Positions 49,761 to 56,240 of a stretch of 59,004 nt of DNA are shown one piece after another. The notes below the pieces were generated by a model. That model was not told where the DNA came from, searched no databases, and saw only the letters and a list, made by a program, of their open reading frames with translations. The position numbers were made by a program, and so were the translations under genes. The DNA comes from Thermoleophilia bacterium (GTDB lineage Bacteria > Actinomycetota > Thermoleophilia > BMS3ABIN01), in the NCBI GenBank assembly GCA_014874265.1, contig JACWAM010000118.1, positions 1-59,004 of the forward strand, given 5' to 3'. Each line of letters begins with the position of its first letter. The first letter of the stretch is position 1.

Positions 49761-50072
49761 CTATTTGCGTGATTTCCAGGAGGTGGCCGCCTGATGAACA
49801 AAGCGTATTTCCGTGATTTTCTCCGGTGGCTCCAGCCTGTTTAACCGCCGGGCGATGGCCGTGGCGGACAGTTTCAGCTCGCACGCCCATCCCCCGGAAG
49901 AACAACCAACGATCATGATGCCCTGCCGCATGTAGATTATGGATGTATTAGCGGCTATATCAGCTCCAACAACCTGCTGCCAGAGGCCTTGCAGGCCCAG
50001 CCCCGGGCTCCTCTTCCAGAGTCGTCGCCGCTCGCCGCTGACAATTGCCCCAATTTGTTTAAATTCAGACAC
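49761..50072 (-). CDS. DUF721/DciA family protein
   Basis: W..VVG..IA..T...W..EL motif; located between recF and gyrB. Confidence 0.8.
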   Translation of the reverse strand: MSEFKQIGAIVSGERRRLWKRSPGLGLQGLWQQVVGADIAANTSIIYMRQGIMIVGCSSGGWACELKLSATAIARRLNRLEPPEKITEIRFVHQAATSWKSRK

Positions 50073-51171
50073 CTGCCACTCCAGCGCCGATTGACCCGGC
50101 CTCAAGCTCCAGGACGAGGGCGCCGCTAAGCTCCTCGCGGGAAAACAATGATGAGTCAGTGGCGGTTATGATCGCCTGACCTTCGCCACCGATAGCGGCC
50201 ATCAACAGCCGGCGCCGCTCCGGATCCAGCTCGCTCATGACATCGTCAAGCAGCAGCAACGGCAGCGTCAGCCCCTGGTCACGGGCCAGATTCCGGGAAG
50301 CGAGCAGCAGCGCCAGCACCGCTCCGCGCTGCTCTCCCTGCGAGCCGTACTCGCGCAGGGGTTTACCTCCCAGTAAAAACTTCAGGTCGTCGCGGTGGCT
50401 GCCAAAGCTCGACGAGAGGCGCTCCATGTCTGCCGCCCAGGCGTCCGTGATCAACCTTACCGCCTCAGCTTCCGGATCGGGAGCCGCCGCCGGCTGCTCC
50501 AGCTGAGATTGGTAGATCATCTCAAGACCCTCCTTACCGCCGGCTATCTCCTTCCAGGCCAGATCCAGATAATCCGATAGAAGTGAGCAGTACTCCCGCC
50601 GGAAGCGGTAAATTTCCAGAGCGGCCGCCGCCGTCTGCCTGTCCCAGGGAGAAATGGCAGCGATGGGTACGAACCCGGCGCGGGCCCGCCCCAGAAAACT
50701 GTTGCGCTGCGCCAGGATTTTCCGGTAACTGGCCGTGATTTCCCGGTATCGCGGGCGGTTTCTGGAAATACTCTCATCCAAGAAGCGGCGCCGGAGCGCC
50801 GGGGGTCCTTTGATCAGCTGCAGGTCGTCGGGCGAGAAACACAGCACAGCACCATGGTTCAGCCATTCGGGGCCACCGCCGGGATCGATTCTTGCCGCCG
50901 ATCCCCTCGGCAGGCTGACGGAGCGGCTGAATGGAGCGCCTCCGTAGCTGCCTTCTGCCTTCAACCTCATAAAGTCTGCGTCCGCAGCCACCATCTCCCC
51001 GAGCTGCTTCGTCCGGAATGACCTGCCGCAAACCGCGTACTGCGCCGCCTCCAGCAGATTCGTTTTACCGGCTCCATTGGCGCCGGTAATTATGGTGATA
51101 TTTTCACCAAATTCCAGCGAGGCGGCAACATGATTTCTGAAATTGGTCAGCTTTAGATAGTTAAGCAGCAC
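50065..51171 (-). CDS. recF: DNA replication/repair protein RecF
   Basis: G.NG.GKTN.LEA, SQGEQR, LLDDV.SELD. Confidence 0.96.
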   Translation of the reverse strand: MLLNYLKLTNFRNHVAASLEFGENITIITGANGAGKTNLLEAAQYAVCGRSFRTKQLGEMVAADADFMRLKAEGSYGGAPFSRSVSLPRGSAARIDPGGGPEWLNHGAVLCFSPDDLQLIKGPPALRRRFLDESISRNRPRYREITASYRKILAQRNSFLGRARAGFVPIAAISPWDRQTAAAALEIYRFRREYCSLLSDYLDLAWKEIAGGKEGLEMIYQSQLEQPAAAPDPEAEAVRLITDAWAADMERLSSSFGSHRDDLKFLLGGKPLREYGSQGEQRGAVLALLLASRNLARDQGLTLPLLLLDDVMSELDPERRRLLMAAIGGEGQAIITATDSSLFSREELSGALVLELEAGSIGAGVAGV

Positions 51172-51186
51172 CCTGATTCAAACCGA

Positions 51187-52296
51187 TCAGCTCGTTAAAC
51201 GCACCGGCATCACCAGGTAAAGAAAATCATCTCCGGAACCCTTGATCAGCCCCGGCCGCAGAGGACTGATAATCCGGATAAAGATATGCTCTTCATCAAC
51301 ACTCTCAATTCCTTCTCGCAAGTATTCTGCGTTAAAACCAATCTCCGTTTCCTCTCCGTCAAATGCGATCGCCAGCGTCTCTTGCGCCTCTCCCACCTGG
51401 GGAGTCTGCGCCGAGACATTTAGCTCTCCGGGTGAAAATTTAAGACGGAGAGGTACATTTTTCTGAGCCATAAGCCCGACTCTGCCAACAACCTCAAGTA
51501 ACTCCTCCTTTTCAAATTCCACTTCATGCTTTAACTCGTCCGGCAACAGTTGCTGGTAATTGGGAAACTGTCCCTCAATCAGCCTCGAAGTCAAAAGGGT
51601 ATCCCCCGCGGCAAACAGAATCTGCCCGTCGGCAGCACCAACGCTAATTTTTTCCGCACCCGATATGGTTCCCAGGCGGGCCAGCTCTTCCATGGAGGAC
51701 TTGGGCACGATGACTTCTTTTTTCTGCGTCAGCGTGCTGTCTACCTTTGTTTCCCTGACGCTGAGGCGGTAGCTGTCAGTAGCCACCATCTTGACACTGT
51801 CACTGCCAAACTTGACAAGTATTCCTGTCAGCACCGGTCTGGTCTCATCACGGGAGGCTGCCCTGGCAACCGTATTGATGGTCGCCAGCAAAGGCTCTGC
51901 CTTAACCTGAAATACGTCATCTTCCGGCATGTCTACCAACCGCGGAAAGTCAGACGCCGGCAGGCAGTTGAGCTTGAAGCTGACTTGCGCGGAAGTGATC
52001 AGAGCCTGCTGCTCTTTTTCGTCAACTTCCACTCTGATGTCTCCTACCGGCATGCTTCTGATCACATCTGTGAGCAGACGTCCCGGAAGAACCGCCGACC
52101 CCGGCCCTTCCACTGTTGCCGGCAGCTTCAACCTCAGAGACAGCTCCATATTCGTGCTTGCCAGCTCCACCGGTTCGTCTCCGGCCGCAGTGAACTTGAT
52201 TCCCGAAAGAACCGGTAGCGTGCTCTTGGTGGCTACTGTCTTGAGAACTATTTGCAGCTTCTCCAGCAGTATGTCTTTCGGACATATCAGTTGCAT
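51187..52296 (-). CDS. dnaN: DNA polymerase III beta clamp
   Basis: ATDSYRL, G.FPNY, MPVR. Confidence 0.97.
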   Translation of the reverse strand: MQLICPKDILLEKLQIVLKTVATKSTLPVLSGIKFTAAGDEPVELASTNMELSLRLKLPATVEGPGSAVLPGRLLTDVIRSMPVGDIRVEVDEKEQQALITSAQVSFKLNCLPASDFPRLVDMPEDDVFQVKAEPLLATINTVARAASRDETRPVLTGILVKFGSDSVKMVATDSYRLSVRETKVDSTLTQKKEVIVPKSSMEELARLGTISGAEKISVGAADGQILFAAGDTLLTSRLIEGQFPNYQQLLPDELKHEVEFEKEELLEVVGRVGLMAQKNVPLRLKFSPGELNVSAQTPQVGEAQETLAIAFDGEETEIGFNAEYLREGIESVDEEHIFIRIISPLRPGLIKGSGDDFLYLVMPVRLTS

Positions 52297-52545: not shown

Positions 52546-53901
52546 CTACCGCGTGTTCTTCAGCTTGGAGGTAAGCTGCTGCACCCGAGTATATACTTCC
52601 CGCTCTTGTTTAATAAGCTTGGCGATCTTATTGACGGCATAAAGTACAGTTGAGTGATCGCGTCCGCCAAACTTCCTGCCGATATGCGGCAAAGAAGAAT
52701 CGGTCAGTTCCCGGCACAGGTACATAGCGATCTGACGGGGATAGACAATGCTCTGGCTTCGCTTGTCGCCCTTGAGATCACTCATGGAGATGCCGAAAGT
52801 GCGGCAGATTTCATTCTGGATCATGTCGATGGTGATTCTTGTTTCCATGTTTGCCGGCAGCAGATTTTTCAGTGCTTCCTTGGCTAGCGGCAAGGAAATC
52901 TCCGTGCGCGTCAGGGAGGCAAGCGCGACGACGCGGATCAAAGCTCCTTCGAGCTCGCGAATGTTTGAGGGAACACCACCTGCGATAAAACCTAGCACTT
53001 CATCAACAGACGTTTCCGGGATGACAATTCCGTCTGCTTTCACCTTCTTTTTCAGGATGGCGATACGGGTCTCGATATCGGGAGGTTGAATATCAGTAAT
53101 CAACCCCGATTCAAAACGGCTGCGAAGCCTCTCCTCAAGGGTGGCGATCTCCTTGGGAGGCCGGTCGCTGGCAATGGCAATCTGGTTGCCGGCCTCGTAT
53201 AAAGTATTGAAAGTATGAAAAAATTCTTCCTGCGTTCCTTCCTTATCTTCCAGAAACTGGATGTCGTCAATGAGAAGGATGTCGTTGTTACGGTACTTGC
53301 GCTTGAAGCTCTCCATCTTCTTGTCCATGACCGAGTTGATAAAATCATTGGTAAACATTTCCGTCGTCATGTACTTGACTGACATCTCAGGGTTGTTAGT
53401 AGCGGCATAGTGGCCGATCGCCTGCAGTAGATGCGTCTTGCCTAAGCCAACGCCGCCGTAGATGAACAAGGGATTGTAGGCACGCGCGGGCGCTTCGGCA
53501 ACTGCGAGCGCGGCTGCATGAGAGAAACGGTTGCTGGACCCGATGACAAAACTGTCAAAAGTATATTTTGGATTAAGTTCTTTGAGAATCGCCGGCTCGG
53601 AGACGGGGGGGAGGGGAATGGGAGCCGCCGGCTCTCTGGGATTGTCGGCGCGAGGCGGGACTACCACCAGCCGCACCGGCATTTCCTCGCCCAGGACCTC
53701 CTGCAGAGAATCTTCAATTAGAGGCATGAACCGGCTTTCAATGCGGCTTTTGGTAAAGTCATTCGGCACCGAGAGGAGAAACGTATTTTCCTCCATCCCG
53801 GCCGCATCGGCTCTTTCAAACCAGATCTCGTAGGCAGAGGTGCTGAGCGTCTCGCGGATTGATTCCTTGGCGCGGCGCCAGATGGTTTGTGGTTGTTCCA
53901 T
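52546..53901 (-). CDS. dnaA: Chromosomal replication initiator DnaA
   Basis: [32 protein letters not shown]. Confidence 0.99.
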
Positions 53902-53984
53902 CAAGGGCTCCTGTTTTTATGTGTTATCAGAAAAAAGCTCCCTAGCGGTGCACGGGGCGTGGGCATCAGTCACCGATGTCCTTA

Positions 53985-54237
53985 ATATCCACAACTAGGA
54001 AGAAGCGCCGCTGGAGGATGTGGGCGAAATTTTACAAGCCGACGCAGAAGAAAACAAGATGGAAGAAGAGGGGTCCACCAGGGAAGTTATCCACAGTCTC
54101 TGTGGAAAATTCTGGTGGGAAATATTCGCAAAAAGCGGCGAAAAAGGAACCATGAAAGAATGTGAAAAATACGTTTATTTGCAGGAAGAAAAACTAATTT
54201 ATCAATTTATCCACAGGTGTTGAAAGTCTGTGGAGAA
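53985..54237. promoter_or_regulatory. DnaA box cluster upstream of dnaA (oriC part / autoregulation)
   Basis: TTATCCACA at 54087 and 54207, ATATCCACA at 53985, TGTGGAAAA at 54101, TGTGGAGAA at 54229. Confidence 0.85.
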
Positions 54238-54373: not shown

Positions 54374-55186
54374 GTGACGACAATTTTAGTCTTTGCCAAT
54401 CAAAAGGGCGGGGTTGCCAAGACCACCTCGACCCTGAATACTGGTGTTGCCCTGCGGGAGATGAATCACAAGGTTTTGGCGGTGGACCTGGATCCCCAGG
54501 GAAATCTCTCCATGAGTCAGGGAATCGATCCGGATTCGTTGACAAATAGCATGTACAACGTGCTCATCCAGCGCGAATCGATCGACGGTATAATTCAGAG
54601 GCGAGAAATTGAGGTGGCGCCTGCGAGTATTGATCTTGCCGGCGCGGAGCTGGCTCTCTCGAGCGCAATCGGCCGCGAACGGGCCCTTGAGAAGGCGTTG
54701 ATGGAAGTAAAGCACCGCTACGATTTCATCCTGATTGACACGCCGCCGTCCTTGGGACTTTTAACCATCAATGCTTTTACCGCGGCCGACGGCGTCATCG
54801 TGCCGGTGCAGTGCGAGTATCTTTCTCTCAGAGGGCTGGCACAGCTGGAGAAAACACTGGAGATGATTCGGGAGAACCTCAACCCGCACGTCGAGATCAA
54901 AGGCATCTTGCCGACCATGTTCGATGCGCGGACCGTCCACGGCCGCGAGGCGATTGAGATCCTCCGGGACAGCTTCGGCGGCCTCGTCTTTAATACCGTG
55001 GTGAGAAAAACAATAAAGTTTGCGGAAGCTCCGGTTCAAGGCCGTTCAATCCTGTCATACGAGCCGGAGGGGAAAGCCGCGGAGACCTACCGTACCCTGG
55101 CAAAGGAGTTGCTAAATGGGAACACGAGCCAGCATGAGGAAAGGCGTTTTAGCGAGCCTCTTCCAGTCCACGGAGCATATATCTGA
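54374..55186 (+). CDS. parA: ParA/Soj family ATPase
   Basis: NQKGGVAKTT, DLDPQGN, DTPPSLG, PVQCEY, EAP..G. Confidence 0.93.
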   Translation: MTTILVFANQKGGVAKTTSTLNTGVALREMNHKVLAVDLDPQGNLSMSQGIDPDSLTNSMYNVLIQRESIDGIIQRREIEVAPASIDLAGAELALSSAIGRERALEKALMEVKHRYDFILIDTPPSLGLLTINAFTAADGVIVPVQCEYLSLRGLAQLEKTLEMIRENLNPHVEIKGILPTMFDARTVHGREAIEILRDSFGGLVFNTVVRKTIKFAEAPVQGRSILSYEPEGKAAETYRTLAKELLNGNTSQHEERRFSEPLPVHGAYI

Positions 55187-56240
55187 AGATTTAAGCATCG
55201 AGGAAAAAAGGCCGGCGCCGCGGGAAACCACATCTCCACGGCGGGAAGAAGCTTACATTGCGGCCATCAAGGTAGTCGGAGTCGGCGGTGGGGGAACCAA
55301 TGCTGTCAACAGGATGGTGCGCGCCGGCATCAGGGGCGTGGAGTTTGTAGCTGTCAATACTGACGCTCAGTCGCTGGCAATGTGCGAGGCCGACGTGAAG
55401 ATACACGTCGGTGGCGAACTGACTCGCGGCCTGGGCGGGGGCGCCGACCCCAAAGTGGGCATCGAGGCGATGGAGCGCAGCCGCGATGAAGTCAAACAGG
55501 TGCTCCGCGGCGCGGATCTCGTTTTCGTCACCGCCGGTGAAGGGGGCGGCACCGGCACCGGGGCGGCGCCGGTAATTGCCGCGGCGGCCCGCGAGAGCGG
55601 CGCGCTGACGGTCGGAATCGTCACCCGGCCGTTCAGTTTTGAAGGAACCAGGCGCAACATCCAGGCGGAAGAGGGAATCCGCCGCCTGCGCGAAGCCTCT
55701 GACACCGTAATTATTGTTCCCAACGACAGGCTGCTCCAGGTGGTTGAGCCGGGCACCAGCCTGCTGGACGCCTTTGCCGTGGCGGACGACGTGCTCCGGC
55801 AGGGCGTGCAGAGCATCTGCGACCTTATCAATCTTCCGGGACTTATCAACCTTGATTTTGCCGACGTCCGCACGATCATGCGCGGCGCCGGCAGCGCCCT
55901 GATGGGGATCGGCACAGCCGGCGGCGAGAACCGCGCCGTCGAGGCTGCCCGGCAGGCAATCGGGTCGCCGCTTCTGGAGACCTCGATCGAGGGAGCGAGG
56001 GGTATTCTGTTAAATGTGAAGGGAAGCGGCGACTGTGCCCTTTACGAAGCCAACGAGGCCGCCCAGGTTGTGGCGGAGGCCGCCACCGAGGACGCCAACA
56101 TCATCTTTGGCACAGTGGTTGACGAAAGCATGGGCGACATGATCCAGGTCACCGTCATCGCCACGGGATTTGATCGGGCACAGCCGGGCGAGAGGGAGCA
56201 GAGGGACGTATTCGAGATGCCCCATTTTCTCAACGGCTAG
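55116..56240 (+). CDS. ftsZ: Cell division GTPase FtsZ with N-terminal extension
   Basis: AAAGGAG RBS. GVGGGG.NA, NTDAQ, GGGTGTG, INLDFADV, VIATGF; C-terminal peptide FEMPHFL. Confidence 0.95.
   Translation: MGTRASMRKGVLASLFQSTEHISEDLSIEEKRPAPRETTSPRREEAYIAAIKVVGVGGGGTNAVNRMVRAGIRGVEFVAVNTDAQSLAMCEADVKIHVGGELTRGLGGGADPKVGIEAMERSRDEVKQVLRGADLVFVTAGEGGGTGTGAAPVIAAAARESGALTVGIVTRPFSFEGTRRNIQAEEGIRRLREASDTVIIVPNDRLLQVVEPGTSLLDAFAVADDVLRQGVQSICDLINLPGLINLDFADVRTIMRGAGSALMGIGTAGGENRAVEAARQAIGSPLLETSIEGARGILLNVKGSGDCALYEANEAAQVVAEAATEDANIIFGTVVDESMGDMIQVTVIATGFDRAQPGEREQRDVFEMPHFLNG

Follow-up and report, generated by a model that had tools for sequence, protein, structure and literature searches.

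A parA-like gene translationally coupled to a second ftsZ in Thermoleophilia: an FtsZ paralogue as candidate partner of a ParA-like ATPase

A stretch of 59,004 nucleotides from a Thermoleophilia bacterium (phylum Actinomycetota; contig JACWAM010000118.1 of assembly GCA_014874265.1, forward strand; contig C109 in our numbering), which will be referred to as the window, carries a gene for a ParA-like ATPase (parA2, 54374..55186, + strand, 270 aa) that runs directly into a gene for the division protein FtsZ (ftsZ2, 55116..56240, + strand, 374 aa). Can an FtsZ itself be the partner or cargo on which a ParA acts? To our knowledge, Actinomycetota are without Min and Noc, and the placement of their septum is an old open question. 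The original prediction, made from the sequence of the window, proposed that this FtsZ is the cargo of the adjacent ParA and that it carries a ParB-like, ParA-activating arm at its N-terminus. By comparing the locus with its relatives in the class and in the phylum we found a conserved accessory module, and we lean slightly towards FtsZ2 being the cognate partner or cargo of ParA2.

The reading frames of parA2 and ftsZ2 overlap by 71 nt (55116..55186, +), the last 24 codons of parA2 lying within ftsZ2. A Shine-Dalgarno sequence, AAGGAG (55102..55107, +), is situated 8 nt before the ATG of ftsZ2 and within the ParA2 codons A-K-E-L-L, an organisation typical of translational coupling. The overlap and the divergent orientation of the pair relative to dnaA agree with the coordinates first proposed, and the reported absence of parB, ftsA, ftsQ and sepF from the window holds for the whole contig, on which no homologues of ParB, FtsA, FtsQ or SepF were detected (ParB_N family search; tblastn, E ≤ 1e-3). 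A frameshift artefact was considered as the origin of the 71-nt overlap and was ruled out, the same overlap being present in 20 of 21 other genomes of the family and an overlap of 68 nt in the remaining one.

Linkage of the two genes was analysed in a set of 41 genomes, comprising the window's own genome, 23 of the same family and 17 from six other Thermoleophilia families. At least two FtsZ matches were obtained in 39 of them; one genome gave a single match and one, which is 69% complete, gave none. In all 21 same-family loci parA2 adjoins the second ftsZ, and all 17 genomes of other families have a ParA2 orthologue (61-73% identity to ParA2, approximately 42% to Soj) directly upstream of one of their two ftsZ genes. 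The genes overlap in all 39 pairs. Of the 22 pairs of the family, counting that of the window, 21 have an overlap of 71 nt and one has 68 nt; in the other families (17 pairs) the overlap measures 4-29 nt. A GGAG-type Shine-Dalgarno sequence precedes the ftsZ2 start by 7-9 nt in nearly all 39 pairs, inside the ParA2 codons A-K/R-E-L/V-L. In a larger set of 121 genomes of the class Thermoleophilia, all at least 90% complete, ParA2 is present as one copy in 116 (E ≤ 1e-85) and at least two FtsZ are present in 117. The four genomes with a single FtsZ likewise lack ParA2, and genome G245 has an FtsZ2-like match and no ParA2 match at E ≤ 1e-85. Among the matches listed, parA2 and ftsZ2 were adjacent in 22 of 22 further genomes. 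The genomes are kin, and these counts describe a distribution and are not statistics. Together, parA2-ftsZ2 is a translationally coupled two-gene module that is ancient and near-universal in Thermoleophilia; both the linkage and the N-terminal motif of FtsZ2, for which a conservation check had been proposed, are kept across the class.

Is FtsZ2 then the division FtsZ of this organism? The genome (2.0 Mb, 97% complete) contains a canonical ftsZ, encoding FtsZ1, on contig C27 in the order murC-murB-ftsQ-ftsA-ftsZ, with sepF and divIVA a few kilobases beyond, and a canonical rsmG-soj-parB cluster on contig C68, in which the sole ParB_N match of the genome adjoins Soj; the N-terminus of this ParB reads ..KGLGRGLEALF. 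The scpA gene is located on contig C52, away from parA2-ftsZ2. FtsZ2 and FtsZ1 share approximately 71% identity over the core, ParA2 and Soj approximately 41% (tblastn, 244 residues). Location in the division and cell wall (dcw) cluster, the mark of a principal FtsZ, thus belongs to FtsZ1 and not to FtsZ2. Since the canonical dcw ftsZ, ftsQ, ftsA, sepF, divIVA and soj-parB are all located on other contigs, ParA2 and FtsZ2 are a second, paralogous accessory pair beside normal division and segregation genes. The search for a canonical ftsZ suggested in the original prediction was therefore successful, and the notion of FtsZ2 as the sole Z-ring protein, served by the sole ParA of the cell, had to be given up. 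No MinC was found in the genome, and none of its proteins exceeded the MinD equivalog cut-off. In both loci of other families inspected for this purpose (L046 and L048), ftsQ lies upstream of the other ftsZ copy. As a separate observation, ftsA is situated between ftsQ and ftsZ1 in the window's family (Pfam FtsA and SHS2 matches on contig C27), whereas in L046 and L048 ftsQ lies directly upstream of ftsZ1 and the locus gave no FtsA match; FtsA may be unevenly kept within Thermoleophilia.

FtsZ2 matched the TIGR00065 ftsZ model with 407.7 bits (cut-off 295.2) and the Pfam models Tubulin and FtsZ_C with 159.5 and 111.2 bits, respectively. In its globular core (55251..56171, +) the segments GVGGGGTNA and GGGTGTG and the T7 segment NLDFAD are intact, and among 39 FtsZ2 orthologues the T1, T4 and T7 motifs, in what we take to be their usual definitions, were found in 38, 38 and 39 sequences. 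A short C-terminal linker, the C-terminal peptide and the stop codon follow (56172..56240, +). The tail past the core comprises 22 residues compared to 51 in FtsZ1, in line with the short linker noticed originally, and ends in DVFEMPHFLNG (DVFEMPHFL at 56205-56231) compared to DVLDIPTFL in FtsZ1. Of the 39 orthologues, 32 have an end resembling the C-terminal peptide; among the seven without it, one is cut by the end of its contig and four come from one family with acidic tails. By these features FtsZ2 is predicted to be a polymerisation-competent FtsZ paralogue. The four sequences of that one family (L035-L038) lack the C-terminal peptide, have long acidic tails and keep the N-terminal motif, a pattern suggesting that in this family membrane tethering is less important than the N-terminal contact.

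Phylogenetic analysis (FastTree, LG+gamma, 62 sequences, 333 columns) placed all 39 FtsZ2 sequences in one clade beside the Thermoleophilia FtsZ1, with longer branches (Shimodaira-Hasegawa-like support 0.959). As FtsZ2 is monophyletic and only one FtsZ was found in each of five genomes searched from other Actinomycetota, the ftsZ duplication appears to have occurred near the base of Thermoleophilia.

The match of FtsZ2 to TIGR00065 begins at residue 43, which agrees with the extra N-terminal residues described at the outset. Residues 1-20 (MGTRASMRKGVLASLFQSTE; 55116..55175, +) represent a candidate ParA2-interaction or ATPase-activating motif, and residues 21-45 (55176..55250, +) form a charged linker between this peptide and the core. 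Class-wide, the FtsZ2 N-terminus reads M-x(1-5)-[KR]-[AP]-S-M-[RK]-[ED]-G-x-L-[AS]-x-L-F-[RQ]-x-T; M1, L12, L15 and F16 do not vary among the 39 sequences, and each of R4, S6, M7 and T19 occurs in at least 90%. The linker after the peptide measures 37-167 residues and is unalignable between families. Within the window's family alone the linker is conserved (TEHISED..IEEKRPAPRE; L005-L025), in contrast to the freely varying linkers of the other families. Between the ATG at 55116 and the FtsZ core the only in-frame ATG, GTG or TTG is the ATG at 55134 (M7); since M7 is thus the only alternative ordinary start before the core, the N-terminal arm must be translated.

One explanation for this conservation would not involve any contact with ParA2: FtsZ2 might be a redundant or stage-specific spare, its N-terminus being held constant only by the overlap with parA2 and by the coupling signals. 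In the window's family 24 parA2 codons overlap the peptide and the DNA is doubly constrained, as this explanation would have it. Across the 69-nt overlap compared in the family, pairwise differences numbered 412, 521 and 736 at ftsZ2 codon positions 1, 2 and 3, respectively; because variation peaks at the third position of ftsZ2, which is the first position of ParA2 codons, constraint is stronger in the ftsZ2 frame. In the other families (17/17) the overlap is only 4-29 nt and the peptide is conserved well past it, and a similar peptide is carried by non-FtsZ partners outside Thermoleophilia, as described below. We consider a mere spare copy very improbable.

The second component, ParA2, belongs to the ParA/Soj-type deviant Walker A ATPases by its AAA_31/CbiA match (AAA_31, 194.1 bits) and has a signature-lysine Walker A motif, KGGVAKTT (residues 11-18), whose residues are invariant across 39 orthologues. 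It scored below the cut-offs of NCBIfam ParA_partition (109.8 bits, cut-off 180) and of the MinD equivalog (49.6 bits, cut-off 212.9), and it is without the cognate ParB that characterises chromosomal ParABS. The Pfam MipZ model gave 49.6 bits for ParA2, over the N-terminal half only, and is non-discriminating here, as Soj scores about equally (43.8 bits). The residues D184, R186 and T187 are invariant among the 39 orthologues and presumably resemble the segment of Soj with its DNA-binding arginine, which we take to be R189; a conserved C-terminal membrane helix is absent. Because this DAR-T segment is kept and a membrane helix is not conserved, ParA2 probably acts as a nucleoid-bound ATP dimer. 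In the window's family ParA2 extends 24 codons past its usual LAKELL end, reading the region of the ftsZ2 peptide in another frame, and this tail stops at a TGA embedded in the conserved ftsZ2 codons E-H-I-S-E. The tail may have no function of its own, since it is absent in other families (ParA2 of 249-282 aa).

What do ParA2 relatives have as neighbours outside Thermoleophilia? ParA2 was used to scan 151 genomes of the phylum, 11 of them Thermoleophilia. Identities were 63-100% in the 11 Thermoleophilia, and the best matches elsewhere reached 45-54%. Seven genomes counted in these scans (G041, G057, G085, G117, G123, G152 and G178) are flagged unpublished; they contribute rows L151 and L155 to the alignment described next and rows to the ParA trees, and no conclusion depends on them alone. 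Many of the loci outside Thermoleophilia show the order xerD, parA-like gene, small open reading frame and scpA (or a thymidine-phosphorylase-like gene), and the small open reading frame begins with M..[RK]RASLPGA[DE]ELFRxT. Alignment of 38 of these small proteins (alignment A3; for example L147:1086-1499 (-), L160:1023-1547 (-) and L146:2249-2617 (+), with 35 more rows) revealed a common N-terminus and, after a disordered linker that varies, a conserved domain of about 65 residues at the C-terminal end. With the A3 profile the small protein was detected in 38 of the 151 genomes, in all 38 directly downstream of the ParA-like gene, and in none of the 11 Thermoleophilia. Its 6151 database relatives are all unnamed or misnamed.

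No family was assigned to five small partners by Pfam and NCBIfam, apart from one Sushi_2 match at chance level (E 0.086). The profile of the small partner gave 0 matches among solved structures at E ≤ 10, and Foldseek searches with its model found nothing in the PDB at E ≤ 0.001. The AlphaFold2 model is confident in the C-terminal domain only. For this domain the 50 best neighbours obtained with VIA-align were almost all ribbon-helix-helix DNA binders (Z 3.3-5.6), among them TraM, PutA, CopA, NikR, ParD, omega, ParG and the pCXC100 ParB; the Z values are low and the list is consistent, as would be the case for a ribbon-helix-helix-like domain. With a flexible N-terminal tail and a predicted domain of this type, the small protein has the architecture of a type Ib ParA partner. 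A peptide of ParA partners would be expected to head the products encoded downstream of ParA-like genes, as the FtsZ2-like peptide does here. Furthermore, in all four loci of one Thermoleophilia family (L034, L040, L041 and L044) ftsZ2 is followed by scpA and hence holds the place that the small gene has elsewhere.

To quantify the likeness of the two N-termini, FtsZ2 sequences were compared by gapped local alignment (BLOSUM62) with 34 distinct small-protein N-termini, using as null set the first 30 residues of 4368 open reading frames of at least 100 aa from the window's genome. Of the 17 FtsZ2 N-termini from other families, 15 outscored all 4368 null sequences and the remaining two were equalled by one or two of them. 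For the FtsZ2 of the window itself, 29 of the 4368 null sequences scored as high or higher; the motif has drifted in this family, with Q for R and N or S for D or E. The motif likeness, as far as the alignments go, is thus good for the class and modest for the window gene. Compared with the LG(R/K)GLxAL of ParB, to which the likeness is only loose, the N-termini of the small proteins are the closer match to the peptide, and FtsZ2 has no ParB domain; on this point the original prediction is not supported. Lysine or arginine is found at position 4 in at least 90% of the sequences and also at position 8. The peptide is less basic than described activator tails.

Several observations weigh against FtsZ2 as the activating partner of ParA2. 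The peptide has one or two K/R before Ser-Met and one after, unlike the most basic activators, and it keeps an invariant serine and an acidic residue (17/17 other-family sequences). It is in the family of the window that FtsZ2 resembles the small partners least, with 0 to 127 of the 4368 null sequences scoring as high. A hidden Markov model (HMM) built from the first 24 alignment columns of the small-partner N-terminus did not place FtsZ2 among its top 8 matches in the six-frame translation of the genome (55402 segments), and in 20 loci of the class (3733 segments) FtsZ2 reached only 4-5 bits, among noise; the motif likeness therefore rests on gapped alignment and position. Conservation among kin is, in addition, non-independent evidence. 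The phylogeny of the ATPases adds a further difficulty. Trees were calculated with FastTree (75 sequences) and with IQ-TREE (LG+G4, 43 sequences, 244 columns; near-duplicates and 25 of the 39 ParA2 rows left out), and in both ParA2 is the sister of a third ParA-like clade (ultrafast bootstrap 100). The ParA-like clade with the small partner joins next (ultrafast bootstrap 88) and Soj lies outside. ParA2 as an orthologue of the small-partner ParA-like gene was ruled out by this topology. The downstream gene of the third clade encodes a small zinc-ribbon protein (C..C ... CP.CG) with the N-terminus ..GK.ALYS.T... Since the tree disagrees with the peptide and with the scpA synteny, peptide and ATPase give no single simple story.

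The third clade itself (L169-L176, L179, L181 and L182, all from other Actinomycetota) has the Walker A motif KGGVAKTT and forms a conserved three-gene ParA module, for which we know of no name. Its upstream gene encodes an acidic CxxC protein with the motif FYCPDC..EDHYL, and the 3' end of this gene overlaps the parA start. Near the N-terminus, each of the three partner types has a basic residue and, after it, ..L-[FY]-[RS]-x-[TS]. Read most simply, these sequences would go back to an old pairing of peptide and ATPase in which the partner domains have been exchanged.

The negative HMM result also favours a different view of the peptide, namely that it is an amphipathic anchor, an alternative already named in the original prediction, or a dock for another partner, such as the membrane, SepF/FtsA, ScpA or FtsZ, and that the two genes are merely co-expressed; in a variant, ParA2 would act on the globular domain of FtsZ2, as MipZ or MinC/D do on FtsZ. 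The conserved x-L-x-x-L-F would provide a small hydrophobic face for such a contact, and according to the available text of a study on filamentous cyanobacteria, a conserved N-terminal peptide is required there for FtsZ polymerisation (PMC6175996). Against this view, a like peptide heads a soluble ribbon-helix-helix-like protein whose only constant neighbour is the ParA-like gene (38/38). The acidic residue kept in all 17 other-family sequences and a helix of only about 8 residues are poorly suited for membrane binding, and the fact that stop and start strictly overlap in every one of the 39 parA2-ftsZ2 pairs points to stoichiometric partners. We regard an anchor or a foreign dock as unlikely. 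A complex of two ParA2 molecules with ATP/Mg and residues 1-45 of FtsZ2, predicted with alignment inputs, received a score of 0.01 (mark 0.32), which counts neither for nor against binding.

The position of the pair on the chromosome raises the question whether the module serves DNA rather than division. Upstream of parA2, and divergent from it, lies dnaA (52546..53904, -; open reading frame list and tblastn self-match), followed on the same strand by dnaN (51187..52296, -) and recF (50065..51171, -). The dnaA-parA2 spacer of 469 bp contains a cluster of five DnaA-box-like sites (53985..54237; sites at 53985, 54087, 54101, 54207 and 54229). Allowing at most one mismatch, the window has 20 such sites compared to 5.9 expected, and the only two perfect TTATCCACA matches in the whole window are both inside this spacer, which is probably oriC or the dnaA control region. 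The arrangement of dnaA followed by divergent parA2-ftsZ2 was found in 21 of 21 same-family loci; in the 17 genomes of other Thermoleophilia families, dnaA was never within approximately 5 kb of the pair. Origin adjacency, noted in the original prediction, thus stands for the window's family and is specific to it. In that family, being next to DnaA boxes may also tie the expression or the position of the operon to the origin.

Such a neighbourhood would fit a DNA-handling module, in which FtsZ2 has replaced a DNA-binding adaptor and acts as a cytomotive filament in origin or chromosome segregation or in compaction. The homologous position elsewhere is occupied by a ribbon-helix-helix-like protein beside scpA and xerD, and the pair is found at a DnaA-box cluster in the window's family and beside scpA in one other. 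FtsZ2, on the other hand, has no DNA-binding domain (Pfam, Tubulin and FtsZ_C only), keeps the C-terminal peptide, the link to division proteins, in 32 of 39 cases, and with its core identity to FtsZ1 of approximately 71% is likely to mix into Z-rings; the canonical soj-parB is moreover available for segregation. We consider a role confined to DNA handling quite unlikely.

Two observations concern the organism rather than the pair. Eight metagenome runs from three studies are listed as containing window DNA; their labels are mine drainage or tailings, and no RNA run is listed. The N-termini of open reading frames at 21376-23439 of contig C27 (genome G000) resemble, by eye, what we take to be those of the dissimilatory sulfite reductase subunits DsrA and DsrB, and the organism may respire sulfite or sulfate.

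Returning to FtsZ2 as partner or cargo of ParA2, the proposal draws on the linkage, the motif and the look-alike partners downstream of other ParA-like genes, and it now concerns an accessory pair and not the main FtsZ and ParA. What was originally observed in the window is thereby confirmed throughout, and the interpretation given to it is supported in part. The duplicated FtsZ2 would have acquired, at its extreme N-terminus, a flexible linker tipped with a short basic peptide. ParA2-ATP dimers would sit on the nucleoid, and the FtsZ2 peptide would dock on ParA2 and trigger ATP hydrolysis. Filaments of FtsZ2, with or without FtsZ1 mixed in, would each display many peptides and form a multivalent cargo and partner of ParA2, and the pair would couple the site of FtsZ assembly to nucleoid position (in the window's family, to the origin region). 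The sign of the effect could be either, FtsZ being drawn to a nucleoid landmark (Pom-like) or cleared off the nucleoid, the way nucleoid occlusion and MipZ work. The broader reading, in which FtsZ2 filaments are both cargo and activator of a nucleoid-bound ParA and, as a self-contained system of two genes, write nucleoid or origin position into FtsZ assembly, the small ribbon-helix-helix-like protein is the partner of PldP/Rv1708-type ATPases, and one ancient actinobacterial peptide moved from a DNA-binding adaptor to a tubulin-family polymer, is put forward tentatively, and we give it somewhat less than even credence as a whole.

How does this compare with known systems? ParB, ParG, MinE and PomX carry their activating peptide at the N-terminus. 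Activators of ParA/MinD ATPases are described as modular, with a short N-terminal stretch containing essential K/R placed on any interaction domain (available text of PMC7993993). The pair resembles the ParA/MinD systems with ParB, ParG, MinE, PomX or McdB in having the ATPase gene followed by a K/R-bearing N-terminal peptide on a flexible linker, and differs from them in that the interaction domain of FtsZ2 is a complete FtsZ and the peptide is less basic; we found no description of an activator that is itself a tubulin-family polymer. In PomXYZ of Myxococcus xanthus, according to the same text (PMC7993993), an N-terminal peptide of the cargo activates a nucleoid-bound ParA-like ATPase. As is proposed here, a nucleoid-bound ParA-like ATPase positions the cargo that decides the Z-ring site; in Myxococcus this role falls to a scaffold of PomX and PomY, by which FtsZ is recruited, whereas here FtsZ2 itself would carry the peptide. 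The present system has two genes compared to three plus FtsZ, and no homology to PomX or PomY. In Caulobacter, the division site is placed by MipZ, an ATPase of the ParA family with a direct action on FtsZ. MipZ is held by ParB and inhibits FtsZ via its own surface, and involves neither a peptide on FtsZ nor an FtsZ paralogue. Type Ib partition pairs (ParF-ParG, delta-omega) resemble the small-partner pair in encoding a flexible tail and a ribbon-helix-helix-like domain right after the ATPase gene, whereas the small-partner pair is chromosomal, by xerD/scpA, and the small partner has no sequence match to solved chains and fold similarity of Z ≤ 5.6 only; in Thermoleophilia, FtsZ takes the place of the DNA-binding domain.

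Within the phylum, the closest published counterparts are orphan ParA-like proteins. PldP (Cg1610) of Corynebacterium is enriched at the septum and its loss misplaces septa; DNA stimulates its ATPase activity whereas ParB does not, and the authors describe its partner as 'yet to be identified' (available text of 10.1101/2025.07.02.662783). It is homologous to Rv1708 (PMC3989709, in part), and MSMEG_3743 adjoins scpA (MSMEG_3742; PMC10482377, in part). Compared by published description, PldP, Rv1708 and MSMEG_3743 are, like ParA2, non-Soj ParA-like proteins of the same phylum. The scpA context of MSMEG_3743 is shared by the small-partner ParA-like genes and by parA2-ftsZ2 in one family, while the window neighbour is dnaA. 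In their available parts, the papers on these proteins mention neither an FtsZ fusion nor a small partner. The small protein is a candidate for the missing partner of the PldP/Rv1708-type ATPases. Duplicate FtsZ kept beside a main FtsZ are known as archaeal FtsZ1/FtsZ2, plant FtsZ1/2 and the truncated FtsZ of Hyphomicrobiales; for these no ParA coupling and no ParA-partner-like N-terminal peptide was found in the literature searched, and Actinobacteria are not mentioned in the available text of PMC9871819. The literature searched likewise held no description of the parA2-ftsZ2 pair, although supplements, which lay outside the search, might list FtsZ duplicates.

ParA/activator systems themselves are known; what our comparison suggests as new is that in such a positioning system the activator or cargo is an FtsZ paralogue. 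The module represents a concrete link from a ParA-like ATPase to FtsZ, fixed by gene fusion and class-wide, and it also indicates in which protein family the partners of the related orphan ParA-like proteins may lie. If the peptide activates ParA2, FtsZ2 would be, within the literature searched, the first cytoskeletal polymer with a ParA-activating tail of its own, and with the pair one would have a minimal in vitro system in which to reconstitute the positioning of the Z-ring.

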